A DNA stretch of 64,000 nt from an uncultured Gammaproteobacteria bacterium (GCA_964519725.1 CAZFKS010000004.1:11848-75847); one strand, 5' to 3'; numbered from the stretch's first letter, positions 5,008-33,991 are shown. Notes: a model not told the origin generated them from the letters alone. A program made the numbers and translations.

Positions 5008-5400
5008 CCTACGCCCAGCGGACTAGCTACCCGCAAGACATGGGCGCGAGGAGATCTCCATGAGTGAAGATGGCGGCGTTAAGCCGACCAAGCCCGGGGT
5101 GATTCGTCCCGGAAACCCCCCGAAAGGGGGCGAAGACGACTCGGGACCGACCACGGTCCCGGAGACGCCGAGATCACGGCGTCGAGTGCCTCGGTCCCTA
5201 CGCACGCCGGGCAGTGACTACGTGCGCGCCCCTGGCCTGACAGAGGGCGAGCCGTAAAGGGTGACACTGTCGCCACCCCGCCAAACTGCGGGGGCAGATT
5301 CCGCTTGATTCGCTCGCAAGAGTTCGAGTCAACAACACTCTCGGCCGCAGCGGAAGCGGCCAAATCCAAAATTAAAAAAAGCCCCGTGGTGGGGCTTTTT
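5008..5400 (+). ncRNA. candidate structured RNA, about 390 nt and high-GC, family unknown; contains a possible 65-aa Pro/Gly/Arg-rich ORF at 5060..5257
   Basis: A chain of independent GC hairpins: cccccgaaaggggg, gggaccg-acca-cggtccc, gacgccg-agatca-cggcgtc, cgcacg...cgtgcg, gggtg...caccc, ggccgc-agcggaa-gcggcc. It ends at terminator 5374-5400 (gcccc-gtggt-ggggc followed by T5). The internal ORF has GAGGAG 6 nt upstream of its ATG, but the peptide is low-complexity. Confidence 0.35.
5374..5400. terminator. bidirectional intrinsic terminator, also serving radA on the minus strand
   Basis: A7 tract, then gccccgtggtggggc, then T5. Confidence 0.6.
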
Positions 5401-5412
5401 AAATTAAACTTT

Positions 5413-6762
5413 TTAAGTGTGCGTAATTAATTCCGCAATATTTTTTACTTTGAGAATTCTTAAACTATCATCTTTTGTTTGTACACTCGCGGCAGTGATC
5501 ACACGCTTCATTCCCAGTGACGCTGCTTCACGGATACGTTTGTCTGAACTGGAAATCTGACGAACCTCACCACCCAAACCAACTTCACCAAAAACTACTA
5601 AATCATTGCCCAAGGCTTTGTCTTTGAATGAACTGGCAATGGCTAGGCACACGGCTAAATCAGCGCCTGGCTCACTAGCGCGCACACCACCAACAATGTT
5701 CACGTAAATGTCGTATTGGCCTAATTGGAGGCCAGCATTTTTTTCCAGGACTGCAGTTAAAACATGTAAACGATTTAAATCAAACCCCGAGGCTTTACGA
5801 ACCGGATAACCAAATACCGTTTTATTTACCAGCGCCTGAACCTCGATGAGCATTGGGCGCGTGCCTTCAAGTAAACAGGTTAAAATACTGCCTGGCACTG
5901 ATTCGCCGCGATCAGCAATGAATACGCCTGCAGGATTTTTGATTTCCGTGAGACCAGATTCGCGCATTTCAAAAATACCAACTTCATCAGTAGCGCCAAA
6001 GCGATTTTTAACGGTGCGGAGTAGACGATAACTGTGGTGACGCTCGCCCTCAAGATATAAAACCGTGTCCACCAAATGTTCAAGAGTGCGCGGACCAGCC
6101 ACTGTGCCTTCTTTGGTCACATGACCAATAATGACAATGGCAATGTTGTAAGTTTTGGCTACATTTAATAATTTGGTGGCCGCAGCGCGGACTTGGGTTG
6201 GGTTGCCAGTTTCACCGGGTAGGTCACTGGAACTAATGGTTTGAATAGAATCAACAATCGCAATGGCGGGCTTTTCGGCTACAATGGTGGCAGTAATAGT
6301 ATCAACATCAGTTTCTGACAGTACTAAAATTTGACCACTGTTTGGCGTGATCCGTTCCGCGCGCAGTTTAATTTGTTCAGCCGATTCTTCCCCAGAAATA
6401 TAGAGAGCGGGTGAAAGTAGGGAAGTCAGTTGGAGGGCCAAGGTGGATTTACCAATCCCAGGTTCTCCGCCTAGTAAAATAAGTGAGCCTGGGACAATCC
6501 CGCCGCCTAACACGCGGTCTAATTCACCTAGGCCAGTGGCCCGGCGTGGTGTATCTGAGGGTTTTACGCTACTCAGCGGGGTGGTTTTGCCAGCTTGTTT
6601 TTTAATTTCAGTGGCAGACGGAATTCCCGCTTTGGTTGGGGCGCTACTAATTGGTTCCTGGGGAATAGTGCCCCACTGACCACATTCTAAACAGCGCCCA
6701 GCCCATTTATGGTACTGCGCGCCGCAATGTGAACACTCGTAGATTGCTTCTGGCTTGGCCAT
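5413..6762 (-). CDS. radA: DNA repair protein RadA/Sms
   Basis: N-terminal C4 zinc finger (CSHCGAQYHKWAGRCLECGQW), Walker A GGEPGIGKST, and a Lon-like C-terminal domain. Confidence 0.9.
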   Translation of the reverse strand: MAKPEAIYECSHCGAQYHKWAGRCLECGQWGTIPQEPISSAPTKAGIPSATEIKKQAGKTTPLSSVKPSDTPRRATGLGELDRVLGGGIVPGSLILLGGEPGIGKSTLALQLTSLLSPALYISGEESAEQIKLRAERITPNSGQILVLSETDVDTITATIVAEKPAIAIVDSIQTISSSDLPGETGNPTQVRAAATKLLNVAKTYNIAIVIIGHVTKEGTVAGPRTLEHLVDTVLYLEGERHHSYRLLRTVKNRFGATDEVGIFEMRESGLTEIKNPAGVFIADRGESVPGSILTCLLEGTRPMLIEVQALVNKTVFGYPVRKASGFDLNRLHVLTAVLEKNAGLQLGQYDIYVNIVGGVRASEPGADLAVCLAIASSFKDKALGNDLVVFGEVGLGGEVRQISSSDKRIREAASLGMKRVITAASVQTKDDSLRILKVKNIAELITHT

Positions 6763-8573
6763 TAAATTTTATTTATGCATTTCTCGTACAGTGGAAAGGC
6801 TTTAGTAACGTAACTGAAATTTCTGACCTCGTCAATTGACTTAGCTAATTTTTTCTTAAACCCACCACAACCAGCATTGTAGGAAGCAAAGGTGCCTTTA
6901 ACCAGGTCGTCACCAGTTAAACCAGCTGCTTGCGCACAGGCATAATCATCTTTAACATGTAAGACAGTCACTTTGAGATTGGTGGTGGTATCAAGTAATT
7001 CAGGAATATTGTAACAGGTCTCTTTAATTTTTATGCCGCGCGCCCCATCGCAAGTACTGTTGCCATTAAAAGTGATTTGACCAGCCCCAAAACCATGAGT
7101 AAAGCGCCAATCTAGACCATAGTCAGGTGGGCTGTTGACAAATGTATCCGCATCATCGTTTATTGTTTTGGCTGAATTATATTTTTTATAATCATACTGA
7201 CTTGAGTCAGATACTGGTGGAGTAAAAGTCGCGCCACTGTATTTTTTACCACTGATTAAAAAAGTTTGACGGGCTTCAACTGGTTTAGTGTTGCGCCGGA
7301 AATTTTCATCATGACCAATTAAATTTTGTTTTCCACCTGATTCCATGGCCATGATGGTGTCCATGAAACATTTGGGCAGGCCAGCGTCTTGGCCAAATTT
7401 TTGCGCGTTGGCAATGGTCTCTGCTTGGCTGGGTGGGGCTGTGCCAGTAATTGATTGGAAAATGGCCGGGTCAATGGTGGTGTAATTAATTTCTTGCCCA
7501 AATACAAACGGTAAACTAATTTCCGCAAAGGAAACCAGCTTTGGGTTTACGGTGTATAAAATTGTGTACCCACCAATAGCGAGCATGAGGCCACTGATTG
7601 ATTGGACAATCATGGTGCGGGCTTCGTCTTTACTGCCGGTTGGAGTGGCCCACAAAAAGCCAGCAAAAATGAGCCGCGCTGTAGCGGCAATGCCAGCAAT
7701 GATGACAATGTATTTAAAACTGGCAGCTAAATATTCACCAATAAAAGGCATGGAAATAAAGACACTGCCGTCTGGTCTGGTTTCAACATCATCAACCGTT
7801 AAATTAGAAAAATTTAAACCGGGAATTTTAATTTTTGGAACCGGCTTAGAAACTAACGTTGCAATTTCATCATTACTTAATTTTTTTTGCACAATTTCGG
7901 CAGCTCCAGGAACTTCACTCGTAATACCTGAAGCACCAGAATTATTTAGGACAATTCCTTGTTGTGAACCAAAGCCTTCTTGGGTAATGGCCTGGAAAAT
8001 TAATTTATAACCAGTTGAATTGGTGTGCAGCACATCGCCACCATATTTTTCGTCCATGATATCATCGCCATTGGTGTCAAGGGTGTTGTAGAGATTGATA
8101 AACAAGTCAATTCCACCTGGTTTACCAGTCAGCCACGTATGATTTTTTTTCAAAAATTCAGCCTGCGCTTTATATGGTTGAGCACTGACCACAATGACGC
8201 GGGTATTTTGCGTTTCAGCCGCAGTGAAAATTTTCATTAAATTTTTTTGTCCAGTATTAACCGCGGCATTATCAATAAGGCCGTTCAGCCCTGCGTAGAT
8301 TACTAGGTCGGTGTAACCTTTGCCACTAACATTAGTTTCGTATTGCTTAACAAAATCAGCCGCATCGTCACCACTGTGTGCAAAACAATTAACGGTTGAG
8401 TCAGGCAAAAGTTCGGCTAATTTTTGGTCATAGTGGTAAGTTTTACACAGCGCTTCAAATGAAGATGAGCCGATCCAAGCAATTTTTTTACCTGCGGCTA
8501 AAGAAGAATAGGGAAGTAGGCTTAAAAGTAAGCTTAAACTCAGTACTATTTTTTTGACGTTTGCCAAGGTCAT
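6762..8573 (-). CDS. secreted, membrane-anchored multidomain protein: N-terminal SGNH/GDSL-like hydrolase-like region, central pilin-like TM module, C-terminal lytic-transglycosylase-like (SLT-like) domain
   Basis: Signal peptide, then the central block PKIKIPGLNFSN...PFIGEYLAASFKYIVIIAGIAATARLIFAGFLWA. The C-terminal motifs MAMESGG...GFGAGQ are reminiscent of the SLT catalytic Glu-Ser region. Domain assignment is by eye only. Confidence 0.5.
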   Translation of the reverse strand: MTLANVKKIVLSLSLLLSLLPYSSLAAGKKIAWIGSSSFEALCKTYHYDQKLAELLPDSTVNCFAHSGDDAADFVKQYETNVSGKGYTDLVIYAGLNGLIDNAAVNTGQKNLMKIFTAAETQNTRVIVVSAQPYKAQAEFLKKNHTWLTGKPGGIDLFINLYNTLDTNGDDIMDEKYGGDVLHTNSTGYKLIFQAITQEGFGSQQGIVLNNSGASGITSEVPGAAEIVQKKLSNDEIATLVSKPVPKIKIPGLNFSNLTVDDVETRPDGSVFISMPFIGEYLAASFKYIVIIAGIAATARLIFAGFLWATPTGSKDEARTMIVQSISGLMLAIGGYTILYTVNPKLVSFAEISLPFVFGQEINYTTIDPAIFQSITGTAPPSQAETIANAQKFGQDAGLPKCFMDTIMAMESGGKQNLIGHDENFRRNTKPVEARQTFLISGKKYSGATFTPPVSDSSQYDYKKYNSAKTINDDADTFVNSPPDYGLDWRFTHGFGAGQITFNGNSTCDGARGIKIKETCYNIPELLDTTTNLKVTVLHVKDDYACAQAAGLTGDDLVKGTFASYNAGCGGFKKKLAKSIDEVRNFSYVTKAFPLYEKCINKI

Positions 8574-10669
8574 AAGATTGGCTTACTAGTTAAGGTGTTT
8601 ACTTTGGCCTTAATATCATCGGGAATTGGCTGATCATAACTATCACCGTAGGCCCAACAACGAGATTTTTTGTCCCATTTTTGGTAGCGCTCGGTGACAC
8701 CATATTCAAAGTGCCAATGTTCAGTGCAGAGTCTAACCCAACCAGCTTGGTTGAAAATATATTCTAAAATAATTTTGTATGGGTCATTCAAAAAGTGTTC
8801 AGAGTAATTTTCTTTGGTAATTTTAAAACTGTCTTCAGCTAATAAAACTTTGCCATTTTTTATGTCTTTCATGTTAGCGTCAACTGCGCCGCCAGTTGCG
8901 TGGGGAGAATTACAGGACGGTGAACTAATTTTGCCCTGATTGCTTTGCCAACCTTTAGTTTTGGTTTGGTAGCGAGCCACCACCCCTGTATTCCAAAGTT
9001 TCACCAGCGAATCAGAGGTGCGCAAAGTGCCACCTGGGAAAATTTTAAAGCCCAGTGATTCGCCTAGGGCCACGGCTTTTCGGAGCGGTTCAACCGCATT
9101 GGGGTGAATTTTTTTACCTTTCCAATTAGGAATATCTTTAATGGTGACAAAAGTATTTTCATTCGGACAGGTGGCGATTTGTTTAAACAAATGCGGTAGC
9201 ACTTCAGTTTTTTGTTCAGTGGTTAAGGCTTGCCAAATCGCAAAACCATCAACATTAACCGTGTTAATTTGGGTACTCATGAACATTTCCGCCTTAACAT
9301 CACCAATATTGGGAATTTTTTCCGTAATGGTAGTGCTTTCAGAAAAATTAGTTTGGGCTTGTCCGGTTGAAGGATCGGTGTCAGCAATAGTTTCTTCTGA
9401 AGGCATTGGCAAATTTTCACCGCGCACGTAAATAATTTTTAAATTATCAAATCGAACTAATTCAGGATTGATTGTGTACAGAATTGTGTATGAACTAACA
9501 GTGATTATTAAACCAGTCACAGCGCCCACCATACGTTTTTTGGCTGAAGATTTTGATTCGCCGCTTGGGTCAGGTAAAGCATATTCAAAACCAGCCACCA
9601 CAATGAGCCCAACACTAACAATTCCACCAATGATTACTAAGTAACGATAAACAGCGGAAATATATTCACCAATAAACGGAATATTTAAGTAAAAAGTGCC
9701 ATCACTATCAATTTTTTGCGCTTCAACTGAATCAATGTTAGAAAAAGTTAGGCCAGGAATTTTAATTTTGTTTTGTGGGGCGCTAACGGTTTCTTTGATT
9801 TTTTCTGGGGTGAGGAATAGAGGTAATTCGGTGGTTTGAACGGCTGTTTCAGACGTGTCTTTGGTTGGAATGTTTGAGAGTGGTTTAACGGCCTTGGCTT
9901 TGCCGTTACACTGGTTATTTAAAATATGATCCAAAAAACAGGCTGTGGCCACAACATTATGACTAGAAAAATCATCTTTTCCGCCAGGCATTTCAAGCAG
10001 ATTAATTTTAGTTGGGTACATTTTTAAAGCAGCCGAGGCTTGACTTAAGCTGTCTAGATATGGGGTGGCATACATGGCAATTGGGCCACTATTATTCAGG
10101 GCCGCGATTTTTTTACACCGATCTCTAAAACAACCGTCTAAAATAATAGTGCGGTTAGCACTAAAACCGTCTTGCAAAAAGTGCAAGATTGAATTGCTAC
10201 CCATACTGTGGCCAGCCACGGTTAAACTTGAGCTATTGAGTGTGACCACTGAAGCGATTTTTTGGCGTGCTTCATTCATGAAACAGGTGGTTTCTTCTTT
10301 GCTCATCACTTTGTCTTCAGCTTCGCTGCCACCCTTATGACCAAGATTGACAATGATGGCGGCCTTTTTGCCTTTACTAGCTAGGGTAGTGGCTGAGCCG
10401 CACAAACTGCCGCTGCCACCACAAAACGAACTGGCACTTGGTGAACCAGTTCCATGAAAATACAAATACAAATCTGTTACTTCGGAAATTGAGTCAGGAA
10501 TAATAAATGCCTGGGTGGTTTGTAGGGCCGCGGATTTGCAGCTACTCGTGTAAGTGTAAAGTTTTGCGCCATTATTCGAACTACTTAAAATTGGCTCACC
10601 TGCGGCCTGAACAGCCTCGCCAAGTAGGCCAAAGCTTAAGAAGAAAAATAGTAGTAATAAGCGTTTCAC
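8570..10669 (-). CDS. secreted, membrane-anchored multidomain protein: N-terminal alpha/beta-hydrolase (GxSxG), central pilin-like TM module paralogous to the upstream gene, C-terminal M15/VanY-like peptidase domain
   Basis: GHSMGS nucleophile elbow. Central block NKIKIPGLTFSN...PFIGEYISAVYRYLVIIGGIVSVGLIVVAGF. C-terminal motifs SPHATGGAVDA and EHWHFEY match M15 (D-Ala-D-Ala carboxypeptidase) family signatures. Confidence 0.55.
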   Translation of the reverse strand: MKRLLLLFFFLSFGLLGEAVQAAGEPILSSSNNGAKLYTYTSSCKSAALQTTQAFIIPDSISEVTDLYLYFHGTGSPSASSFCGGSGSLCGSATTLASKGKKAAIIVNLGHKGGSEAEDKVMSKEETTCFMNEARQKIASVVTLNSSSLTVAGHSMGSNSILHFLQDGFSANRTIILDGCFRDRCKKIAALNNSGPIAMYATPYLDSLSQASAALKMYPTKINLLEMPGGKDDFSSHNVVATACFLDHILNNQCNGKAKAVKPLSNIPTKDTSETAVQTTELPLFLTPEKIKETVSAPQNKIKIPGLTFSNIDSVEAQKIDSDGTFYLNIPFIGEYISAVYRYLVIIGGIVSVGLIVVAGFEYALPDPSGESKSSAKKRMVGAVTGLIITVSSYTILYTINPELVRFDNLKIIYVRGENLPMPSEETIADTDPSTGQAQTNFSESTTITEKIPNIGDVKAEMFMSTQINTVNVDGFAIWQALTTEQKTEVLPHLFKQIATCPNENTFVTIKDIPNWKGKKIHPNAVEPLRKAVALGESLGFKIFPGGTLRTSDSLVKLWNTGVVARYQTKTKGWQSNQGKISSPSCNSPHATGGAVDANMKDIKNGKVLLAEDSFKITKENYSEHFLNDPYKIILEYIFNQAGWVRLCTEHWHFEYGVTERYQKWDKKSRCWAYGDSYDQPIPDDIKAKVNTLTSKPIL

Positions 10670-10671
10670 AC

Positions 10672-11313
10672 TTAGGGGTTAGTTAGTCCCAAAGCTTGTT
10701 CCCAAGCCTCGACAGTTGGGGCAATGGTTACTTGTTTATTATCAATGAAAAAAGTTGGCACTGATTGAATGTTTAGTAGTGCGGCAATACTTTTATTTTG
10801 CTCAAGGTGGGCTTTGGCCGCTTCACTATCAATACAAGTGGCTAATTTTTCCGCATCTAAACCAACGTTGGCCGCAATTTTTTGGAGCGTGGTGTCAGAT
10901 AATTGATCACTGTACGAAAAGGCGAGTGCTTTATATTCAGCAAATTTATTTTGTTGCTGCGCGCAGTAACCATAAGTAATCGCTGGTTCACTAGGGTATG
11001 GATAACGCGTTACAGGTAGGCCTTTCCAAACCACTTTTAGAGCCACTGGATGTTTGGAAATTACCTGCGTTAAAATGGCATCATATTCATTACAGCTGGC
11101 ACAACTATAATCTTCAAACGCCACCACCACTTTGCCAGCGCGTTTAAGTCCAACCACTGGGTCATCAGCTAAAACTGGAATGGTAAAAGTTTCTTCTGTG
11201 GTCTTATCTTTATCAGGAAACAGTGGCTCGTAGCGGAGGACTTGTACAAATAAAACAAACCCGGCTAAAACAATCGCTGGAATAAAGATTAACAACATTT
11301 TTTTTGTACCCAT
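10672..11313 (-). CDS. DsbA-like thioredoxin-fold thiol:disulfide oxidoreductase, membrane-anchored
   Basis: N-terminal TM segment and a CASC (CxxC) active site within a DsbA-like fold. Confidence 0.65.
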   Translation of the reverse strand: MGTKKMLLIFIPAIVLAGFVLFVQVLRYEPLFPDKDKTTEETFTIPVLADDPVVGLKRAGKVVVAFEDYSCASCNEYDAILTQVISKHPVALKVVWKGLPVTRYPYPSEPAITYGYCAQQQNKFAEYKALAFSYSDQLSDTTLQKIAANVGLDAEKLATCIDSEAAKAHLEQNKSIAALLNIQSVPTFFIDNKQVTIAPTVEAWEQALGLTNP

Positions 11314-11314
11314 A

Positions 11315-12565
11315 CTAAAGTTTTACTTGGAACATACCTGACTGGGCTTTGTCAGTGAAATATAAAGTTTGACCATCTTCACTCAAAGTAATGGTATCAA
11401 TGGTGTGAATATCATCGAGAGGAATATCGGTTTTGAGACCAGTGGCGGTGTCGATTTTGTACAATTTGTCTGGAGTGTTGTTGGCGACCGCTGGTGCAAA
11501 ACCCGCCCCAGTATTAAGTAATTCTGGGACACCACAGTACACAAAGCGGTCATCAGCCATCGCACATTTGCTGGCCCAAGTTTGCACGCCAAGTAATTTG
11601 CGATTACCACCCACTGTGTCTGGAGTGCCGTCAGAAATCCAGAGTTCAGGTTTAAAATCACTGGCCGCACTGTAAACACTGTGTAAAATTTTACTGCCAG
11701 ATTTTGACCACTTGGTTTCTAGGCCACGACCTTCAACAATAAGTGATTTGAAATTTTCTTGATTTTGACCTAGGAGTAAAACTTGTTGACGATCGTCACT
11801 GAGCGCTTCGCCAGTTTTTGACATGCCCACCACTTGGCGATTAGGAGACCAGTCAACTGTAACTTTATCAGCATTGTTTCCAAGCGGTTGAATTAAGCGC
11901 ACGCTTGATCCGTCTGGGGCAGAACTAATTAACCACCGATTTTCTGGGGCTAAACCAACACTTTTAGCCGCCACTTGATCGCCTTGAGGTGAGAAGGAAA
12001 AATTTTCCCAGTGTCGTGGTAAAGTCACTTGTTGTTTGGTATTAAAGTCGTAAAAAATATTGGAGCCGTCTGGATATTCTAAAATTGAATTATTACCGGT
12101 TGGCGACCAGGTAACTTTTTGCACATTGTAAAATGTTTGATCAGACAATGGCACAGCCACACCCGATGCATCAAGTCGATAAAATTTTCCGTCTTCAGAA
12201 TTATAAAATTTAGTGTTGCCGCCGGCGGTATTAACGCCACGTACGGCTGAGTCAACAATTTTGGTCACGCGTTCACTAGTAAAGTTTGGTTGGTTGAGCG
12301 GTAAACCAGTGTTTGCATCAACCCCGCCGATTGGACCAGTGACTGTACCAACTGGTGGAATCTCGCCGTTATTTGTACCGTTGTCTTGATTGGGTGTGCC
12401 ATTATTAATGTTTGGAAAACCCACTTGTCCGCCAGTTTCAATTTGGGTGCCAGTGTCTGAGGTTGGCGGTGGTGCTTTGCGGAAAAAAACAAAATAAATT
12501 GCGTACGCCATGCCAATGGAAAAGAGAATGAAACCAATGATGAGCGCAATTCTTTTTTTATCCAT
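11315..12565 (-). CDS. membrane-anchored beta-propeller (TolB/PD40-like) protein
   Basis: N-terminal TM segment followed by a low-complexity linker and repeated beta-strand-rich units typical of PD40/WD-like propellers. Confidence 0.45.
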   Translation of the reverse strand: MDKKRIALIIGFILFSIGMAYAIYFVFFRKAPPPTSDTGTQIETGGQVGFPNINNGTPNQDNGTNNGEIPPVGTVTGPIGGVDANTGLPLNQPNFTSERVTKIVDSAVRGVNTAGGNTKFYNSEDGKFYRLDASGVAVPLSDQTFYNVQKVTWSPTGNNSILEYPDGSNIFYDFNTKQQVTLPRHWENFSFSPQGDQVAAKSVGLAPENRWLISSAPDGSSVRLIQPLGNNADKVTVDWSPNRQVVGMSKTGEALSDDRQQVLLLGQNQENFKSLIVEGRGLETKWSKSGSKILHSVYSAASDFKPELWISDGTPDTVGGNRKLLGVQTWASKCAMADDRFVYCGVPELLNTGAGFAPAVANNTPDKLYKIDTATGLKTDIPLDDIHTIDTITLSEDGQTLYFTDKAQSGMFQVKL

Positions 12566-12568
12566 ATA

Positions 12569-14167
12569 TTAAATGTTTGGGGCAGGTGGTTGAGTGAGAT
12601 TGGTGGCGGCTGGTGCTTGGGCTGGATTTGGTGGCTGGGTTAATTTGTAGCGCTCGCGAGCCATTTCATTGTATTGTTTAATGATTTTAGTTTTTTCGGC
12701 TTTTTTTGCGTCACGTTTTTTTACTTCTGATTTTATTTTATCTTTAAGCTCGTCATTAGTAACTTTTAGTAAATCAATGCCTTTTTTTAGTGGCCAGGCC
12801 CAACCAGAAATAATTGGCACTACGAAAAAGAAAATTATAGTAATTGCGAACAGAACCGCAATGACGATCAGGGTAATCCATGCCAATCGTAAACCTTTGA
12901 TCCGAAAATTATTTTTTTCAATTTGACTTTCGATTGGTTCAATAGTGTGCGTGATCGCATCAATTTCTTTTTGCACCTTAGTTTCTGCCTGTTCTAACTC
13001 AGCTAGTTTTTTGGTCAATTCATCGATGGCTGGTTGATTTGGATTCTGAACTGGAACATTATTGTCTATTTTACCATGACTAGGGTCGGTTTGGGCAGTG
13101 GTCTCAGTGGCTAAGTCTGGATTTTGGTCAGGCTCAGCTTCGGTTTGGTCCGCAGGAGCTTCTTCGGATTTGGCTCCTGACCTTTGGTCACTTTGATTAT
13201 TAATTCCAGCAATTCCAAGGGCTTTGTTATTTTTTAAACGAGGTAAACCATTTTCATCAGTTTCAATCAGTGGTTCACCAAGGCCAGTCATTACTTCTTT
13301 GACTTCTGGTGGGGGAGTTGGTTCTTCTACAGGTTTTTGGGCTGGTTCAGCTGGTTTTGTTTCTGGTGGTGCTTCAGTCGCAGCAATATTTGGCGCAGTT
13401 GATTCAGTTGGGGCCGGGTTTGGTTTATCAGCTTCGGCTAAGTCAGAATTTTTTTGGTTATCGCGATCAGTTTGGCCTTCGTTAATACCGGCTTCTTGTC
13501 GATCAACCGGTACATTTGACTCGCCGCCAGTTGGATTTACTGGTGGTTCAGTGGGATTCGCGTCTTCAGAATTTTTTTGTTCACTGCGCTTGGCAGCAGC
13601 TTGGTCAGCGCCAGCAGCCTGTCGATCTGGTGCTTGAGTTGGTTGTTCGCCACGCGGAACAGCGGCTGAATTTTTGTCCTCAGGTTTTTGCACTGGGATT
13701 TCTGGTTCGGTTGGTGGAGTCGGAGGTGTGACTGTTGCTGCATCAGGTGCTGTCTCTGGTTCGGCTGGGGGCGTTTGAACCGGTGGTTCTTCTATAGCAA
13801 CAACTGCGGCTGGAGTATTTGGTGGAATTGGGTTATTACCGAATTCATTTAGAACATCCGCTAGTTCTTCGGCTTTAGTTTGGTCAGTTAATTTTTCCAC
13901 GGCATCATCAATTAATGTAGTCGCAACTAAATCATCAATAGCATTATCAAGGGCTTTTTCTTGACCTAAATCATCAGTAATTTGACCAATCATTTTGGTT
14001 GCTACATCTTGGAGTGTGTCATTAACTTTGGCTAAACCTGCCCCTTGTAATTGACTAGCTGCGAGTGCAGACATCAAAGCTCGTTTAATTTTACCTACCT
14101 GGCCATTAAAAAAACTACTAATTGGTTTAGTAATTGATTCAATTGGTTTGTTTGGGGGGTTAGCCAT
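12569..14167 (-). CDS. proline-rich, acidic, largely disordered protein with C-terminal coiled-coil and TM anchor
   Basis: PT/PE-rich low-complexity middle region. The C-terminal hydrophobic segment is ITLIVIAVLFAITIIFFFVVPII. Confidence 0.45.
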   Translation of the reverse strand: MANPPNKPIESITKPISSFFNGQVGKIKRALMSALAASQLQGAGLAKVNDTLQDVATKMIGQITDDLGQEKALDNAIDDLVATTLIDDAVEKLTDQTKAEELADVLNEFGNNPIPPNTPAAVVAIEEPPVQTPPAEPETAPDAATVTPPTPPTEPEIPVQKPEDKNSAAVPRGEQPTQAPDRQAAGADQAAAKRSEQKNSEDANPTEPPVNPTGGESNVPVDRQEAGINEGQTDRDNQKNSDLAEADKPNPAPTESTAPNIAATEAPPETKPAEPAQKPVEEPTPPPEVKEVMTGLGEPLIETDENGLPRLKNNKALGIAGINNQSDQRSGAKSEEAPADQTEAEPDQNPDLATETTAQTDPSHGKIDNNVPVQNPNQPAIDELTKKLAELEQAETKVQKEIDAITHTIEPIESQIEKNNFRIKGLRLAWITLIVIAVLFAITIIFFFVVPIISGWAWPLKKGIDLLKVTNDELKDKIKSEVKKRDAKKAEKTKIIKQYNEMARERYKLTQPPNPAQAPAATNLTQPPAPNI

Positions 14168-14492
14168 TTTGGGCGCGATTAGTAGCGGCTAATAATTTGG
14201 CGCAATCAGCGTAATAGGCAGCAATAATTCCTGGTGTTTTTTGTTTGGCTAAAATGGCTGAGCTTTCGTACAGATCTTCTAAATGCAGCGTAGTTTGTTC
14301 GGCGCGTAGTCTAATTAATGTATCAACGATTTTAGTATCAGCTAAGTTAGCCGCTAATTTTTTTTTCCAAAAAATTAATTCTTCGTTAATGTGTTCTAGC
14401 CGTGTGGCCCGACGTTCAGACGTGTTTTGACTACCAAGTCGATCTTTATTTTTTTGCACAGCTAAACGGTGAGCCGCATCATTTGAGGACAT
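14160..14492 (-). CDS. small hypothetical coiled-coil protein
   Basis: ORF-track ORF that overlaps the neighbouring minus-strand genes in operon-like fashion. Confidence 0.35.
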   Translation of the reverse strand: MSSNDAAHRLAVQKNKDRLGSQNTSERRATRLEHINEELIFWKKKLAANLADTKIVDTLIRLRAEQTTLHLEDLYESSAILAKQKTPGIIAAYYADCAKLLAATNRAQNG

Positions 14493-17019
14493 ATTTTTCC
14501 GCTTCGCGCGTTAAGGTGAGTTTGGTTTTGCGTTTAGCTTTGCCAGCTTCTTTTTTGAGTCGAGAAATAATCAGCTCGGGAATTAAGCGTTCAATTAAAC
14601 GCTGGACTGGTCGGGCACCCAGGTCAACACTGAATGACTCAGTGGCCAAAGCTTCAACCACGGTTTTGTCCGGATTAATTGAGAGTGAGCGTGCTTGTTC
14701 AAGTTCACGGCTAATCCGCGCAATTTCTGTTGTAATAATGGCCTCAATATCAGTTTTGGTGAGTGGTGAAAAAATCGCAATGGTATCGAGTCGACTCATC
14801 ACGGCCGCACCTAATTCATCTTTGACCGCGGCGCGAACCTTTTGCTCAATGTTTGTAGTTTGTCCGTGACTGTTAAAACCAATCCCAGCGGATTTAAATA
14901 ATTGACTACCAATATTCGCGGTTAAAATAATGATGGCGTGATTAAAATGTACTTTTTTGCCACCACCGTCAGTCAGCTCGCCTTCGTCCAAGATTTGCAG
15001 AAGTAATTTGCGCACATCAGGGTGGGCTTTATCAATTTCATCAAACAAAACCACGGAATATGGACGGCGACGCAGTTCATCAAACAAGCGGTTGCGATCT
15101 TTGTACCCAATGTAACCAGCTGGCGAGCCGAGAAGTTTAGCCACACTGTGACTTTCCGCAAATTCGCTCATGTCTAATTTAATGAGAGCGTCGGGATTAT
15201 GATACAAACCAGCGGCAATTTGTTTGGCCATTTCGGTTTTACCAACGCCGCTTGGACCAACAAATAAAAATGAAGCAAATGGTTTGCCTTTGCGGCCCAG
15301 GCCTAAATAGCGTTCTTTGAGGGTGTGAATAACAGTGTCAATGACGGCTTTTTGGCCAATAATTTTTTCAGTCAGTAAATTTTCGGTTTGTTCAACCGTG
15401 TCCCACTCACTACTGGCCAAGAGTGATGAGTCAATACTTAACCGACTGGCTAATGTTTTGACCACATCTTCGGCTTTAACTAAAATAGTTTGTTTTTTAG
15501 TTTTCTTACTACTGTCTTTTTCAATTTTTTTCAATTCTTTTTCTAATTTAGAAATAGTTTTTTTGTGACGCTCAGCTTGCTTAACATTCTTGGCGGTTAA
15601 GGCTTCGGTTTTGGCCGCTTCAGCTTCTTTAATTTCTTTTTCAATGGCCGCAATTTTTTTAGCATTGGGATTTTTATGTTCACGCACTTTTACCGTTGCA
15701 GCCGCTTCATCCAGTAAATCAATTGATTTGTCAGGTTGATATGAATCGTGTAGATATTTATTACTTAATTCCACCGCACTTTCCACCGCCCCAGAAGAAA
15801 TTGTTACTTCGTGAAATGATTCATAATATTTTTTGATGCCTTCTAGAATTGAAACCGTTTGGGCTGGGGTTGGTTCAGCCACAGTAATGGATTGGAAGCG
15901 ACGTTCTAGAGCTGGGTCAGAGGTAATGTATTTTTTGTACTCATCGTACGTAGTCGCGCCAATACAATGCAATTGGCCGCGCGCCAACGCTGGCTTCAAA
16001 ATATTGGCTGCATCAAGGGTACCTTGATTTGAACCAGCGCCAATAATAGTGTGAATTTCATCAATAAATAAAATAGTGTCTGGACTGTGTGACAGTTCGT
16101 CAATGACTTGTTTTAAGCGTGATTCAAATTCACCGCGGTAAATTGTTCCGGCAATAAGTAAGGTCAAATCAAGGGATAGAATTTTTTTGCGGCGCAAAAT
16201 ATCTGGTACATCACCGCTTTTAATGCGTTTGGCTAGGCCTTCAACAATCGCAGTTTTACCAACCCCTGGCTCACCAATTAAAACCGGATTATTTTTAGTT
16301 CGGCGTGACAAAATATTTATCACCCGATTAATTTCTTCGTCCCGACCAATTACTGGGTCTAATTTTTTTTCTACCGCACTGTCAGTTAAATTCACGGTAA
16401 AATATTGGACTGCACTTTCGTTGGCCCCGCGTTTTTGTTTTGGACCAGGCGCGCCGTGATCATGATCATGGTCGTGCTCAGCGTCTTTATCAGCCTCGGC
16501 TGCCAAATTATCCATAGTTTCAATCATGGCCTCGATGCTGGCAGACTGACCACTAGTTTCCAGTGAATTTGTGACATTTTTGTGTAAGTCAGAAATTTTT
16601 ACACCTAAGGCTTTAAATAATTCGGCGAGCGCTTGATCAGGAGCTTCCAGTAAAGCGAGCAGTAAATGTTCTGTACCAATGTAACTGTGACCGCGCTCAA
16701 AGGCAATCAGAAGCGAACGCTCAATCACTTTGCTAGCTGCTTGGCCAAGGTCAGGCAGAGCTGGTTTACCTTCCTGACCGCGCTCGACTGCTTCGCGCCC
16801 AGCCACTGAGCGCCGGAATTCGACCAAAGGGAAATTATTTTTTTGTAAAATTTCACTGGCCACTGAGCCAGGTTCTTCGGTTAGGCCAATAAACAGGTGA
16901 AGTGGCTCAACCTGGTGAATTTTGGCCGCATGCGCCGTTGAAATTGCACGCGCAATAACATTTTTTAAGTGCGTGGAAAAATTATCTAAGAGTTTTTGTG
17001 GGGTCATACGTTTTGACAT
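14479..17019 (-). CDS. clpB: AAA+ chaperone ClpB (Clp/Hsp100 family with two NBDs and a middle coiled coil)
   Basis: N-terminal Clp repeat, GEPGVGKT and GPSGVGKT Walker A motifs, and a long Lys/Glu-rich M-domain between the NBDs. The probable start is MSKRM at 17019 (RBS AAAGGG) rather than the ATG at 17040. Confidence 0.85.
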
Positions 17020-17075
17020 TTGAGTGGTCCCTTTATACAATCAGTATACTTAATTTTCTTAATTTTTCCTAGGGT

Positions 17076-30689: not shown

Positions 30690-31302
30690 CCAAAGCCACA
30701 GTTTTTTTCAAAACATCGAGGTGCCAAGTTTTAGAAAATCCAACTCCAGCATCACCATCGCCAGTCACAAACTCAATAATATTTGGGGCAATTACTTTTA
30801 AACTATCATAATCAATTGCGCCCGGGTGATTACCAAGCACGCCTAAATATTGGCTTGGCGGCGCATCAGCCACATATTTTGGTTCCAAGAAAAAGTAGCA
30901 CGAATCTGGACTGTAAATTGAACCACATAAATTTTCATTACCAACCTGTTCAGTCCGGTCATTCGCAATCACTAAATAATAATCCAAACTACTGCTCGTA
31001 AAAATATGAAGCACGCGAAATTTTGCTTGCAAATAACTTTGTGAGAGTAAGGTTGAGGTCGGCGTGGTTTTGGTAATGTCAAACACTGTGCCAGGATGAG
31101 ATGTGGCAATGTCAGGCTGGTCTAAAACGCCTGTATTTTCCGTAGGCCCAGTATTTGTAGTTGAGGTTGGTGTGCTGACCACTTGGTCAGCTGGTAAAAG
31201 CTCAACGGTTTTTTGGTGCGCTTCATGTTGCGCATACCAAATTAAACCGCCTAGTCCACCCAGGACAATAATTGCTAATAAAATAAGGAGTGATTTTTTC
31301 AT
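30658..31302 (-). CDS. hypothetical membrane-anchored secreted protein
   Basis: N-terminal TM segment and a Thr/Pro-rich linker. Its 3' end overlaps tsaD by 32 nt. Confidence 0.4.
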   Translation of the reverse strand: MKKSLLILLAIIVLGGLGGLIWYAQHEAHQKTVELLPADQVVSTPTSTTNTGPTENTGVLDQPDIATSHPGTVFDITKTTPTSTLLSQSYLQAKFRVLHIFTSSSLDYYLVIANDRTEQVGNENLCGSIYSPDSCYFFLEPKYVADAPPSQYLGVLGNHPGAIDYDSLKVIAPNIIEFVTGDGDAGVGFSKTWHLDVLKKTVALVEQQNISYLD

Positions 31303-31340
31303 AAAATATTTTCCTTACCTTAACACGCTAAGCCCATTTT

Positions 31341-31368
31341 GGCAATAAAAAAACGGCCCCGCAGGACC
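31341..31368. terminator. intrinsic terminator downstream of hup
   Basis: aaaaaacggccccgcaggaccgtttttt. Confidence 0.5.
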
Positions 31369-31383
31369 GTTTTTTCTGGCAAT

Positions 31384-31665
31384 TTAGAGCACTGCTTCTT
31401 TAGCAGCTTTAGCCAAGCGGAATTTAACAACCGTTTTGGCAGCAATTTTAATAGTGGCGCCAGTGGCTGGGTTGCGACCAGTGCGAGCAGCACGGCGAAC
31501 CTTAACCATTTTACCAAAGCCTGGCACAACAAACATGCCATTCTTTTTCACTTCTTTGTAAGCAGTGGCTGAGAGGAGGTCGAGCACCATGCCGATATCC
31601 TTTTTACTTAAACCGGACTTGTCTGCTAAGAGACTTAGCAAAGCTGATTTTGTCATTCCTGACAT
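31384..31665 (-). CDS. hup: DNA-binding protein HU
   Basis: Bacterial histone-like family signature MTKSALLSLLADKSGLSKKD...GFGKMVKVRRAARTGRNPATG. Confidence 0.85.
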   Translation of the reverse strand: MSGMTKSALLSLLADKSGLSKKDIGMVLDLLSATAYKEVKKNGMFVVPGFGKMVKVRRAARTGRNPATGATIKIAAKTVVKFRLAKAAKEAVL

Positions 31666-31786
31666 ATGAGGTTGTTAAATTAACCTTAATAATATTGAGT
31701 ATTATAGCGCGCGTGTGGAAATACGCAACAAAAATAAGGGTGAAAATACCTAAGCTGTGGAAAACTTCGCAAAATAGGGGAGTAGG

Positions 31787-31815
31787 TTGACAAAATTACA
31801 TTTTTAAATTATAAT
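31787..31815 (+). promoter_or_regulatory. consensus sigma70 promoter (TTGACA, 17-nt spacer, TATAAT) for the high-GC Nudix-like gene
   Basis: Perfect -35 at 31787-31792 and perfect -10 at 31810-31815. Confidence 0.55.
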
Positions 31816-31883
31816 TCACTGTTCTGAAAATTTGGGAATGTCCCGAATTGACAGACAAGTTCTTTAAACGTGAGGTCTTACAA

Positions 31884-32420
31884 ATGGTTTCGATCCGTCG
31901 TTTCAATGTCCCTGTGTTCATGCTCGTTGACGATGGCGCCGGCACTGGCACCTACAACCACCTCCCTAACGACGTCTATGACACGATCAAGCGGTGTATG
32001 CCGATCTTTTGTGTCGACATCATCGCCATCACCTCTCACAGCAAGGTCTGCCACCTGGCCAAGCGCCGGCGCACGCCGTGCCAGGGCTGGTGGTGGTTTG
32101 GAGGTCGGCTCGGTCAGGACGAACTGCCCGAGAACGGCGCAACGCGCATTCTCGAGCGCGAGCTCGGGATCCACATTGACCCGGGGCGATTCAAGGTCGC
32201 CGGGGCGGTATTTCAGTACTTCAACGAACCGGAATGCCGGGGCACCTTCCCGGTGTTCCAGCTCAGCTTCGAGATCACCGCTGAGGAGCTCGCCGCGGTC
32301 CGTCTGGACCCGGGCGAGTACGAGGCCGACGTCGGCCTCCGAGAGTTCAGCCTGGCTGACTTGCAGACCGAGGGGGTCAACCCCCTCATCGCAGCGGTCG
32401 CCCGCGACCTGCTCTTGTAA
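31884..32420 (+). CDS. Nudix-like hydrolase, high-GC and likely horizontally acquired
   Basis: GRLGQDELPENGATRILERELGI approximates the Nudix box Gx5Ex7REUxEExGU. The preferred start is ATG 31884 (MVSIRRF, RBS GTGAGGT) rather than the TTG at 31848. About 65% GC. Confidence 0.5.
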   Translation: MVSIRRFNVPVFMLVDDGAGTGTYNHLPNDVYDTIKRCMPIFCVDIIAITSHSKVCHLAKRRRTPCQGWWWFGGRLGQDELPENGATRILERELGIHIDPGRFKVAGAVFQYFNEPECRGTFPVFQLSFEITAEELAAVRLDPGEYEADVGLREFSLADLQTEGVNPLIAAVARDLLL

Positions 32421-32469
32421 TCTCTTCACCACCCCTAATCCCGCCTCTACCAAAATCCCAACTGGTGGA

Positions 32470-32510
32470 GGCTGCAAAACCCCCTGTCTCCACCACTTTT
32501 ATTTCTAAAG
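32470..32510 (+). terminator. intrinsic terminator
   Basis: gtggaggctgcaaaaccccctgtctccac followed by ttttatttc. Confidence 0.5.
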
Positions 32511-32559
32511 TTTGGAAGTAAAAGTGGCAGGGAGTTTTGTTATTTATAAAACAAAAAAC

Positions 32560-32610
32560 AGCCATGAATGACTGTCTTTTGTTGCGCCTCTGATTCGTCA
32601 GAGGCAGCGT
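32560..32610 (-). terminator. tandem-hairpin terminator module at the 3' flank of a high-GC gene
   Basis: On the minus strand: gcctctga-cgaa-tcagaggc, then gacagtcattcatggctgtc, then T6. It is homologous to the 3' flank at 33090-33162. Confidence 0.5.
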
Positions 32611-32663
32611 CCCAGAACTCGGCGCGGCGTCATGCGGGTTCAATGGGAAGCGCCAGGACGGCG

Positions 32664-33065
32664 CTAGCGGTGGGCGAAGGAGACGATCGCCTCGGCGAGT
32701 TCGTGGGGCTTGGCGCCCCAGGACTCGCACTTCTTCTTGAAGGCTTCGTCGTCTTCAAGTTTTCTTTCGGTCTCATCACAAGTCCAGTTCTTCCTCTCGT
32801 GGCTCGGGACATCTTGTCCATTGTAGATTGAGATGAAGTTGAACTTGGGCACCTTTCCTTTTTCGAAGGTGAACACGATGACCTTACGTTCACCGTCATT
32901 TTTGCAGAATCGTGTGACATCGAGGCGCTTCGTGCCCTCGAATTTACCACCGACGCGAGCGGGTTCGTTTTCGAGTAGCTTTTTGGGGTCGATTTCGATG
33001 AAACGCACTGAATATCGCTCCCTAGGTTGCCTGTTACCAGGCGTGATTTGTGCTAAACTTAGCAT
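32664..33065 (-). CDS. hypothetical protein, high-GC
   Basis: ORF-track ORF. A more likely start is GTG near 33005 with an AGGGAG RBS, giving about 113 aa. No family recognised. Confidence 0.45.
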   Translation of the reverse strand: MLSLAQITPGNRQPRERYSVRFIEIDPKKLLENEPARVGGKFEGTKRLDVTRFCKNDGERKVIVFTFEKGKVPKFNFISIYNGQDVPSHERKNWTCDETERKLEDDEAFKKKCESWGAKPHELAEAIVSFAHR

Positions 33066-33069
33066 AAAA

Positions 33070-33100
33070 CAATAAAAAAGTCAAGGTACAAAATGAAAAA
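33070..33100 (-). promoter_or_regulatory. promoter candidate (cTTGACTTTTTT context) for gene 32664..33065
   Basis: The minus-strand sequence reads ccttgacttttttattgttttatgctaagttt. It is the same -35 module as at 4596 and 4975. Confidence 0.3.
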
Positions 33101-33162
33101 ACAGCCACCTAAGTGACTGTTTTTTCATTGGGCCCCTGACACGTCAGAGGCAGCGTCCTGGA
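33090..33162 (-). terminator. terminator module at the 3' flank of gene 33225..33773
   Basis: Shares the 16-mer gtcagaggcagcgtcc and the A-tract/acagcc...gactgt/T-tract hairpin with 32560-32610. Confidence 0.45.
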
Positions 33163-33224
33163 TCTCGGCGCCGATTGCTCGGCACCAAGCTCAGACAGGA
33201 GTGATCCGGAGAGGATCACGTTGC

Positions 33225-33773
33225 TCAGCTCTTGTGGAGCGAGCGCCGGCGGCCGACCATCTTCATGATCAGTGCCAGAGTGGGGAGGTAGACGAGACCC
33301 CCACCGGTCTCCTGGACCTGGATAAGTCCGCGCTCCTCGAACCGCGCGAGGATGACGCGGACCTCGTCCGGGTCCATCCGCTCATCGGAGATCTTGTTGT
33401 CTTCGAGGAGACGTGTCTTGCTGACTCCGATCCAGCAGAGGCGTTCGGCAGCTTCTGCGGCCGTGGTGTTGGTAGGGAGAGACTTGAAGTCCTCCCACAT
33501 GTACACCAGGAGGCGCGCTCCGAGCGCGTCCTCCACCTTGCTGTCGAGGATTGGATTACAGGCGTCGGGGCGGTCCAGCCCCCACCGGACGAGTCGAAAC
33601 TCGCCGGGGAGACAGGGTGCCCCTTCGAGGTCGAACCGGTAGAGGCCCGGTCGACCAGGGATCTCTGCGCACCTTGACATTGTGAAAATTCTCCCTGAAA
33701 CGAACATCCGGCGGGGACGCCGGAAAGAGTGGATGAAACGGCCAACGCGAGCAGTGAAGAGGCCAGTGGCCAC
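33225..33773 (-). CDS. hypothetical protein, high-GC, possible C-terminal winged-helix
   Basis: ORF-track ORF with GTG at 33773. An alternative start is ATG MSRCAEIPG near 33680 with an AGGGAG RBS. C-terminal ...VRVILARFEERGLIQVQETGGGLVYLP. Confidence 0.45.
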   Translation of the reverse strand: MATGLFTARVGRFIHSFRRPRRMFVSGRIFTMSRCAEIPGRPGLYRFDLEGAPCLPGEFRLVRWGLDRPDACNPILDSKVEDALGARLLVYMWEDFKSLPTNTTAAEAAERLCWIGVSKTRLLEDNKISDERMDPDEVRVILARFEERGLIQVQETGGGLVYLPTLALIMKMVGRRRSLHKS

Positions 33774-33799
33774 CTACAGCCTTTCGTCGTTGACGCGCC

Positions 33800-33828
33800 A
33801 GTATACACAAAAATCCCTTTTTTGTCAA
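33800..33828 (-). promoter_or_regulatory. consensus sigma70 promoter (TTGACA, 17-nt spacer, TATACT) on the minus strand
   Basis: The RC of 33823-33828 is TTGACA and the RC of 33800-33805 is TATACT. Confidence 0.5.
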
Positions 33829-33919
33829 GAGGATAACTTGATAAAATCCCTTAAATTAGCCAAAAAAATTAAAAAACCACGGCTATTAACCGGGTTTTGT
33901 CGACGATTTCCGTCATTTG

Positions 33920-33991
33920 TAGCGCCAAGGGGAATTGAACCCCTGTTCTCAGGTTGAAAACCTGATGTCCTAACCATTAGACGATGGCGCC
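33920..33991 (-). tRNA. tRNA-Glu (anticodon TTC)
   Basis: Hand-folded. Acceptor GGCGCCA/TGGCGCT, D-loop AATGGTTA, anticodon stem TCAGG/CCTGA, loop TTTTCAA, T-loop TTCAATT. No CCA encoded. Confidence 0.75.

Follow-up and report, generated by a model that had tools for sequence, protein, structure and literature searches.

Candidate wall hydrolases carrying a VirB2-like pilin hairpin at a conserved clpC-radA locus of Patescibacteria

In a 64,000-nucleotide stretch of DNA deposited under the name of an uncultured Gammaproteobacteria bacterium (GCA_964519725.1, CAZFKS010000004.1:11848-75847; "the window" below), two adjacent genes, which we call A and B, each encode a protein with an enzyme domain at either end and a shared block with two hydrophobic helices in the middle. 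The core of this block is homologous to the VirB2-like pilins of type IV secretion systems (T4SS) of Patescibacteria, and in related genomes genes with the same block occupy the same chromosomal position with other enzyme domains attached. With slightly better than even confidence, we lean towards the view that A and B are extracytoplasmic, bifunctional wall hydrolases that are tethered by a pilin hairpin and act, together with the beta-propeller protein encoded beside them, in or next to a T4SS-related envelope apparatus.

Patescibacteria, which live attached to other microbes, account for a large part of bacterial diversity. In the only species examined in this respect, the T4SS and its VirB2-like pilins are essential, and no function has been assigned to them (PMC10633639, PMC11665869, PMC12857230); the pilins form an essential array in the T4SS locus of Southlakia and are widespread in the phylum (PMC10633639; PMC12102498). 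Published work thus covers the T4SS of Patescibacteria as well as the small VirB2-like pilins and the arrays that they form, and multi-domain hydrolases of the VirB1 type are well known. In the literature that we searched, we found no description of fusions between a pilin hairpin and hydrolases, of the extended module, of a clpC-radA slot with exchangeable enzyme heads, or of a pairing between pilin and propeller.

A two-helix module shared by genes A and B

The first-pass annotation of the window had proposed two adjacent genes with a common module, and both open reading frames (ORFs) are indeed found on the minus strand (Table 1). Residues 232-362 of A align with residues 286-420 of B at 42% identity (BLASTP of A versus B, E 3e-30). 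A module profile built from 12 blocks and run against all six-frame ORFs of the window recovers A (E 4e-50) and B (E 7e-59), with the next best ORF at E 0.45, leaving two copies only. The shared block is thus real and goes far beyond chance. The annotation had described it as about 70 amino acids (aa) ending in a single hydrophobic helix; the existence of the block stood, its dimensions did not. The module covers about 135 aa and contains two hydrophobic helices together with conserved non-membrane flanks. Read from its N-terminal side, it opens with a short helix and the motif P-x-P-K-I-K-I-P-G-L-x-F-S. A small beta-hairpin follows, with I-P-F-I-G-E-Y at its end, and then come hydrophobic helix 1, a short Ser/Lys/Arg-rich loop, hydrophobic helix 2, whose end is Y-T-I-L-Y-T-I-N-P-E-L-V-x-F, and one strand. 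Hydropathy places the two helices at residues ~285-308 and 321-341 of A and at ~340-362 and 378-398 of B, with a short basic loop between them, and in the AlphaFold2 (AF2) models (m5154800b2764 for A, m578c35840e6f for B) they extend over residues 276-309 and 315-342 of A and 332-364 and 371-400 of B. The flanks are modelled as short beta-strands beside the hairpin.

Residues 334-399 of B match the Pfam family PF18895 (T4SS_pilin) with 27.0 bits, against a curated cut-off of 26.6, and 58 of the 90 other block-bearing proteins do so at E<=1e-3 (best E 6e-10). The module profile also matches small pilins (95-291 aa) from the T4SS loci of several classes, Saccharibacteria and Paceibacteria among them, at E 1e-11 to 1e-18, values stated for a nominal database of a million sequences. 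These matches span profile positions ~48-123 and include the ILYTINPE motif, and the conserved flanks (positions 2-47 and 124-134) are confined to the enzyme-bearing subfamily and absent from the small pilins. Given the PF18895 match and the profile matches to small pilins of T4SS loci, the module core is the VirB2-like T4SS pilin hairpin of Patescibacteria. Gene A has homologues solely in Patescibacteria metagenomes, and some of these proteins bear the database annotation "pilin". A search of PDB sequences with the module profile returned no pilin structure, only a chance match to cytochrome bd (E 0.08). The earlier suggestion of a processed segment like that of type IV pilus (T4P) pilins had to be given up: the hydrophobic pair is a central hairpin of the VirB2 kind, there is no class III signal peptide and no G/(F,M)-x-x-x-E prepilin motif, and the signal peptides are of the ordinary Sec type.

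Such a signal peptide stands at the start of both proteins, and all four enzyme domains are therefore expected outside the cell. The cysteines of both proteins are confined to the enzyme domains, where their number is even (2+6 in A, 8+4 in B), and the module has none; the two helices are joined by a basic loop (SAKKR-type). The simplest reading is that both enzyme domains of each protein are outside the membrane and the loop inside, which agrees with the surface location proposed in the first-pass annotation, both proteins being predicted to be exported and held in the membrane. The signal peptide would direct export of the N-terminal enzyme, helix 1 would halt transfer, with the short basic loop remaining in the cytoplasm, and helix 2 would restart export and bring the C-terminal enzyme outside, so that both enzymes would sit on flexible linkers. 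The linkers are long and disordered in the AF2 models, especially residues 147-232 of A. The co-transcribed DsbA would make the disulfides of A and B.

The flank motifs, such as ILYTINPELV and PKIKIPGL, are kept at 40-50% identity across genomes. Canonical VirB2/TrbC pilins mature by terminal cleavage, and one could imagine A and B as polyprotein precursors in which the flank motifs are processing sites, cleavage there releasing a pilin and soluble enzymes in the manner of TrbC/VirB2 trimming. We regard this as very improbable. The motifs are sharply conserved exactly at both borders of the pilin core, as processing sites might be, and small pilin genes are apparently missing from two Magasanikbacteria assemblies, for which VirB4, TrsD and PrgI are listed and, by the thresholds of that paper, no PF18895 pilin (Table S3 of PMC12102498). 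However, the cluster holds no protease gene, and the modelled strands beside the hairpin are what a structural cap would look like.

An alpha/beta hydrolase and an M15/VanY-like peptidase had been noticed in B, and both assignments were borne out. The N-terminal domain is modelled with a predicted local distance difference test score (pLDDT) above 90, its model matches cutinase, PETase, lipase and esterase D folds (Foldseek, E ~5e-6), and the S155/D178/H237 triad is conserved among orthologues; by fold and catalytic residues, this confidently modelled domain is a serine esterase of the alpha/beta-hydrolase fold. The C-terminal domain reaches 25.4 bits against Pfam VanY (cut-off 25) and E 2e-7 against the NCBIfam D-Ala-D-Ala dipeptidase model, below that model's cut-off, and its residues R550, H590-x6-D597 and E650-x-x-H653, the last two being the zinc and catalytic motifs of LAS peptidases, are kept in 8 positional orthologues. 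The AF2 model of this part is poor.

For A, the domains first proposed came through in part. The SGNH-like region shows blocks I (G-x-S), III (G-x-N) and V (D-x-x-H), at positions kept in most of six aligned orthologues (in L006, Asn replaces the block V Asp), and relatives of A reach GDSL_2 at E 1e-10; A itself scores 19.1 bits against this Pfam family, short of the cut-off of 32.9, and its Foldseek matches to SGNH esterases are weak (E ~6e-3). The C-terminal domain, modelled with pLDDT ~90, contains an invariant E411-S412, and its family is distinguished by an insert of ~80 aa (IGHDEN...PPDYGLDWRFxHG). A profile of this family matches goose-type lysozyme in the PDB at E 4e-4 over the regions of the catalytic E-S and AYNAG, and EmtA/MltC at E ~0.1; Pfam SLT is matched by 6 of 12 relatives (best E 4e-4) and not by A. 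The domain is probably SLT/lysozyme-like, although the scores are weak.

O-acetylated N-acetylmuramic acid (MurNAc) blocks lytic transglycosylases, and SGNH esterases of the Ape type lift this block. By this logic, the SGNH domain of A would strip ester decorations, probably O-acetyl groups, before the SLT/lysozyme-like domain cuts the glycan strands. In B, the alpha/beta hydrolase would remove another ester and the M15/VanY domain would cut stem peptides or cross-links containing D-Ala. The pairing of activities that had been suggested for the two genes is consistent with these assignments, each protein joining a glycan-side or de-esterifying activity with a peptide-side activity.

A fixed slot with exchangeable enzyme domains

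A scan of one genome per species with an alignment of 5 closer block sequences returned 51 loci. In every locus with a full block and enough flanking sequence, the block gene or genes stand at the same place, the slot between dsbA and radA; this sample comprises 26 species representatives and several separately examined loci, about 30 Magasanikbacteria-type genomes. Starting from a divergent glmM, the genes follow as clpC, one or two small or Pro-rich genes, the propeller gene, dsbA, a block gene or two, radA and, at some distance, recG. The dsbA-like gene lies directly upstream of the module genes in all of the ~30 loci, and the Pro-rich protein is kept in presence and position among relatives, its sequence being poorly conserved. 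The DsbA, beta-propeller and Pro-rich neighbours that the first-pass annotation had pointed out are thus present as conserved partners, and form with the block genes a dedicated, conserved cluster. Two block genes occur in the window and in L002, L008-L011, L016, L017, L022, L033 and L058. In the Bacillus ctsR-clpC-radA operon, clpC and radA adjoin; in the window, six envelope genes stand between them (5376-17040).

The enzymes at this slot vary widely. At the C-terminus we find VanY (8), A-type SLT-like (8), C39-like (5), Amidase_2 (5), a domain of unknown type (5) and SGNH (4), besides M15_4, GH18, CHAP and M23 with one case each; at the N-terminus there is no domain, an SGNH or Cys-rich domain, a B-type alpha/beta hydrolase, a metallophosphoesterase or Exo_endo_phos. 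N- and C-terminal types recombine, as in P0003 and P0004, which join a B-type N-terminal domain to an A-type C-terminal domain. The nucleophile elbow of these two proteins is degenerate (AHGIGT and AENSDSS versus GHSMGS in B), and their esterase domain may now be a binding module. In two-gene loci, a recurrent pairing has the peptide-cutting enzyme (VanY or amidase) in one gene and the SLT-like domain in the other. In a neighbour-joining tree of the blocks (~130 aa, of low resolution), copies from the same genome tend to pair and head types are scattered; the block thus follows the genome, and it is the heads that are exchanged.

The wider family gives a similar picture. The module profile finds 47,727 protein clusters at E<=1e-3, 13,212 at E<=1e-10 and 426 at E<=1e-30, so that at least 426 clusters have the full module; among the best 150, nearly all proteins are 300-1000 aa long and carry the whole block at variable positions. 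The domains that accompany it in 90 block proteins are overwhelmingly peptidoglycan hydrolases, namely Amidase_2 (19), VanY (12), SLT (9), Peptidase_C39_2 (6), M15_4 (6), GDSL_2 (6), NlpC/P60 (3), M23 (3), Glucosaminidase (2), CHAP (2) and GH18 (1). As a side observation, several metagenomic polypeptides (P0058, 1147 aa; P0171, 1775 aa; P0041, P0042, P0062 and P0162) contain 3-17 tandem hairpin cores each; such "poly-pilins" may be real fusions or miscalled pilin arrays.

A pair of transmembrane (TM) helices next to peptidoglycan hydrolases is superficially reminiscent of holin and endolysin, and VanY and amidase domains are common in endolysins, so a prophage lysis cassette, with a holin-like hairpin and endolysin domains, was also considered. 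We reject this reading because neither A, B nor their neighbours match PHROGs, and we give it next to no weight: the slot is fixed among housekeeping genes of the chromosome in ~30 species, signal peptides and a two-sided architecture are unlike a lysis cassette, and the GC content matches the rest of the genome.

Every gene examined in the window has its best homologues among Magasanikbacteria or Patescibacteria metagenome proteins; the window comes from a Patescibacteria (candidate phyla radiation, CPR) genome of the Magasanikbacteria type. A complete locus of this type is also found in further public metagenome-assembled genomes (MAGs) labelled "uncultured Gammaproteobacteria bacterium" (L014-L016, L018-L022, L025, L029-L031), which are evidently mislabelled Patescibacteria.

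The propeller partner and a proposed link to type IV secretion

A profile of the propeller family matches TolB in the PDB at E ~1e-6, and PD40 is detected in 6 of 21 relatives. Full-length homologues of the propeller (E 5e-7 to 3e-33) are encoded directly downstream of a small pilin in 14 of 23 distant loci, from Saccharibacteria, Paceibacteria, Moranbacteria and others. One such locus, L043, reads PrgI, a 211-aa gene, VirB4 (P-loop_TraG, E 6e-25), a 246-aa gene, T4SS_pilin (98 aa) and propeller (417 aa; L043:10246-11499), with genes of the size of dnaA and dnaN nearby, and is the T4SS locus described in PMC12102498. Since propeller homologues directly follow the small pilin at distant T4SS loci, the pairing of pilin and propeller is conserved throughout the phylum; genomes of the Magasanikbacteria type have the pair between clpC and radA, with the pilin bearing enzymes. 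The propeller was not named as a T4SS component in the literature searched.

On the reading that we prefer, hairpin and outer flanks would be a specific docking unit, co-evolving with the genome and partnered with the adjacent TolB-like propeller, and the enzyme heads would be exchangeable cassettes. A and B would then have the role that VirB1/PrgK play elsewhere, opening peptidoglycan at the sites where the T4SS-related envelope apparatus is active. Of this picture, sequence homology, catalytic motifs, topology signals, synteny, head exchange and the linkage of pilin and propeller are observed, whereas the export topology, the substrates, a docking to propeller or T4SS and the wall that is cut belong to its interpretation. 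Most Patescibacteria with VirB2 homologues are without VirB1 (PMC12102498), and in the essential T4SS locus of Southlakia, adjacent lysozyme-like and M15B-type genes come right after virB4 (PMC10633639, Table S2).

Several observations weigh against this reading. No VirB4, VirB6, PrgI or type IV coupling protein (T4CP), nor any other T4SS or T4P gene, is found among the ORFs of the 64-kb window, and walking ~20 kb beyond recG in two relatives, anchored on LCP-protein homologues, gave no virB4, only housekeeping genes (der, pth, dprA, topA, clpP, vanW). The search for T4SS and T4P components thus came out negative over this range, and the case for a T4SS link is built on homology and on the gene neighbours seen in other classes. 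The locus itself is in the housekeeping operon clpC...radA, which fits an ordinary autolysin too. A alone falls below every Pfam threshold for PF18895, SLT and GDSL, and Foldseek on its C-terminal domain gave nothing at E<=1e-3. The hairpin core is found in ~48,000 clusters, and a general anchor is possible. It also carries non-wall enzymes, since a Saccharibacteria MAG encodes a 1024-aa protein (L038:10118-13189) with the hairpin (197-265) and a subtilisin-like protease (343-631; E 1e-38 versus PDB subtilisins); two large hairpin proteins of other classes had no PDB match. This fusion, together with the polypeptides with tandem hairpins, suggests that the hairpin may be a general carrier or membrane anchor in the phylum, which tempers a T4SS-specific reading. 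A generic anchor had been named in the first-pass annotation as the result that would undo its proposal; the abundance of the core and the subtilisin fusion speak for such an anchor, and the partners, nearly all peptidoglycan hydrolases, and the subfamily-specific flanks speak for something more particular.

The housekeeping operon, the lack of T4SS genes within reach, and the abundance and other fusions of the hairpin core are what one would expect if A and B were ordinary housekeeping autolysins for the cell's own growth, division or daughter separation, with the hairpin as a pilin-derived anchor that has no tie to a T4SS. We give this explanation roughly one chance in four, and note that a membrane tether, which restricts the reach of the enzymes, is in its favour as well. 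A plain anchor, however, would not hold ILYTINPELV and PKIKIPGL at the identity observed across genomes, and one would rarely see the head type vary between related species at an orthologous slot if it held a core autolysin whose wall substrate had not changed. The pilin-propeller pair conserved at T4SS loci of other classes also speaks against this explanation.

At the other extreme, A and B might be true modular pilins of the VirB2 type, whose hairpin a T4SS would pull out of the membrane and build into its pilus, sparsely or at the tip, for their enzymes to digest the wall of the host on which the epibiont feeds. Both termini of VirB2/TraA-type pilins face the exterior of the pilus, as seen in the structures of F- and T-pili, so that cargo at both the N- and the C-terminus would be topologically possible. 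The core is homologous to essential T4SS pilins, the linkers are long and disordered, the swapping of heads and the presence of de-decorating esterases and phosphoesterases resemble the diversification of weapons, and the two Magasanikbacteria assemblies mentioned above are listed without a small PF18895 pilin. Even so, we find this idea unlikely: two domains of 25-30 kDa per subunit would be hard to pack on a helical pilus, a pilus of this kind is not known, no T4SS genes are near, and the extra flanks, absent from small pilins, suggest a different, non-polymerising use. If it were true, the essential T4SS would have a concrete job, drilling through host-specific walls, and A and B would be the first cargo-bearing VirB2 pilins.

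Which wall would be cut by the tethered hydrolases of our preferred reading is a related question. Head swapping and the accessory esterase and phosphoesterase domains have the look of an adaptation to walls that are foreign and host-specific; the cell's own wall is suggested by the membrane tether, by the setting in a housekeeping operon and by the VirB1-type precedent. In either case, a whole lineage has a pilin hairpin physically fused to a full repertoire of wall-cutting enzymes. The slot of these enzymes is fixed and its occupants are exchanged, the hairpin follows the genome, and the propeller partners the hairpin here and at T4SS loci elsewhere. Taken together, fusion, head swapping and propeller pairing tie the "pilin" to wall breaching, and they nominate the propeller as a new conserved component. 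If the hairpin is only an anchor, the locus would still be a tidy case of cassette-like evolution of surface autolysins.

Features of the locus and comparison with known systems

The genes from clpC through the 110-aa gene, the Pro-rich gene, the propeller gene, dsbA, B and A to radA are arranged head-to-tail with junctions of -14 to +3 nt (B and A overlap by 4 nt), and the string ends at a strong terminator (Table 1). When profiles of the 110-aa protein and of the Pro-rich protein were run on T4SS loci of other classes, the matches were coiled-coil noise and none was a credible homologue. A match of the Pro-rich protein to IcmG/DotF (NCBIfam, E 0.002, 17.8 bits versus a cut-off of 200) was dismissed as due to low complexity. 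Elsewhere in the window, a stretch of ~2.5 kb beside a tRNA-Glu gene has 56% GC, versus 43% in the genome, and contains overlapping ORFs in several frames; searches of this stretch gave no Rfam family and no tandem repeat, and it is probably a horizontally acquired insert.

Table 1. Positions of the features discussed, counted from the first nucleotide of the window
Feature	Position	Strand	Description	Evidence
Intrinsic terminator	5376..5400	minus	strong; just after radA, ends the clpC...radA string	
radA	5413-6762	minus	last gene of the string	
Gene A	6762..8573	minus	603 aa, ATG start; signal peptide, SGNH esterase, long linker, pilin-hairpin module, SLT/goose-lysozyme-like domain (putative)	ORF, translation, AF2 model
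A, lysozyme-like/SLT-like domain (probable)	6765..7478	minus	residues 366-603; ~80-aa insert	E411-S412 invariant; C402...C599 pair conserved
A, module copy	7488..7880	minus	residues 232-362; PKIKIPGLNFS...MPFIGEY, TM1, basic loop, TM2, YTVNPKLVSF, strand	
A, SGNH-like esterase	7974..8492	minus	residues ~28-200	G35-S-S37, G95-L-N97-G, D180-x-x-H183
A, signal peptide	8493..8573	minus	residues 1-27, ending ...SSLAA before G; inferred cleavage site	hydrophobic N-terminus, Ala-x-Ala-like end
Gene B	8570..10669	minus	699 aa, GTG start; signal peptide, alpha/beta hydrolase, pilin-hairpin module, M15/VanY peptidase (putative)	ORF, AF2 model
B, M15/VanY zinc peptidase core (predicted)	8702..9112	minus	residues 520-656	R550, H590-x6-D597, E650-x-x-H653
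B, module copy	9410..9814	minus	residues 286-420	residues 334-399 match PF18895 T4SS_pilin
B, alpha/beta serine hydrolase (predicted)	9890..10597	minus	residues ~25-260	G153-H-S155-M-G157, D178, H237
DsbA-like thioredoxin-fold oxidoreductase	10672..11313	minus	N-terminal anchor	Pfam Thioredoxin_4 E 3e-20, DSBA E 1e-12
TolB/PD40-like beta-propeller	11315..12565	minus	membrane-anchored, 416 aa	family profile versus PDB, neighbourhoods
Pro/Glu/Ala-rich protein	12569..14167	minus	532 aa; coiled coil and one TM helix near the C-terminus	
Small conserved cytoplasmic protein	14160..14492	minus	110 aa; between clpC and the Pro-rich gene	
clpC	14479-17040	minus	first gene of the string	
GC-rich stretch	31300-33900		probable insert	
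NUDIX-like ORF in the GC-rich stretch	31848-32420	plus		
tRNA-Glu	33919-33991	minus		
ORF without Pfam match	35208-37451	minus	747 aa	

The closest relatives of the module are the small VirB2-like pilins of Patescibacteria (for example SEML1_0015-0019 of Southlakia epibionticum), which have in common with A and B a two-helix hairpin with a basic loop, a motif of the ILYTINPE type (profile E ~1e-16), a signal peptide upstream and a TolB-like propeller as genetic partner. The small pilins are ~95-200 aa long, consist of the hairpin only, and lie beside virB4, often in arrays. A (603 aa) and B (699 aa), in contrast, have enzymes at both ends and extra flanks, their hairpin is central instead of directly following the signal peptide, and they occupy the dsbA-radA position with no virB4 nearby.

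The likeness to VirB1/PrgK hydrolases that the first-pass annotation had drawn can be kept in part: the T4SS pilin hairpin and the pairing with the propeller support its hint at a T4SS, whereas A and B do not belong to the VirB1/PrgK family, use another anchor and lie outside a T4SS operon. Hydrolases of the VirB1 type (PrgK of pCF10, TraG of pIP501, TcpG; cited in PMC12102498) are likewise multi-domain, membrane-attached proteins in which a peptidase is joined to a glycosidase or lytic transglycosylase. Their set of domains differs from one system to another, and, as in our reading of A and B, the role proposed for them is a local opening of the wall for an envelope machine. They have an N-terminal TM anchor, are encoded inside the T4SS operon and typically hold SLT and CHAP in one chain; A and B have a central pilin-hairpin anchor, spread their activities over two genes, and add SGNH and alpha/beta esterases. 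Another parallel, compared by description, is the essential pair SEML1_0006/SEML1_0007 of Southlakia epibionticum, just downstream of virB4 (PMC10633639, Table S2): these are two adjacent large exported proteins, one lysozyme-like with a cysteine peptidase and one of Hedgehog/DD-peptidase (M15B) type, with a split between glycan and peptide like that of A and B. Unlike A and B, they have no reported pilin domain and are part of a T4SS locus near dnaA.

Two more distant systems share the principle of a constant carrier with a variable load. Modular type IV pilins, such as PilB and PilC of Streptococcus sanguinis, are pilin scaffolds with a functional module grafted on; they belong to an unrelated class, with a class III signal peptide, a single N-terminal helix, and grafts that are adhesins and C-terminal only. 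In polymorphic effector or toxin loci, C-terminal heads are exchangeable and the module for delivery or anchoring stays constant. A and B differ from them in that they come with neither an immunity gene nor a known secretion-system cargo signal, toxin domains are absent, and their hydrolases would stay tethered to the producer, but they resemble them in a constant module at a fixed locus, in the swapping of heads, and in a module phylogeny that follows the genome.

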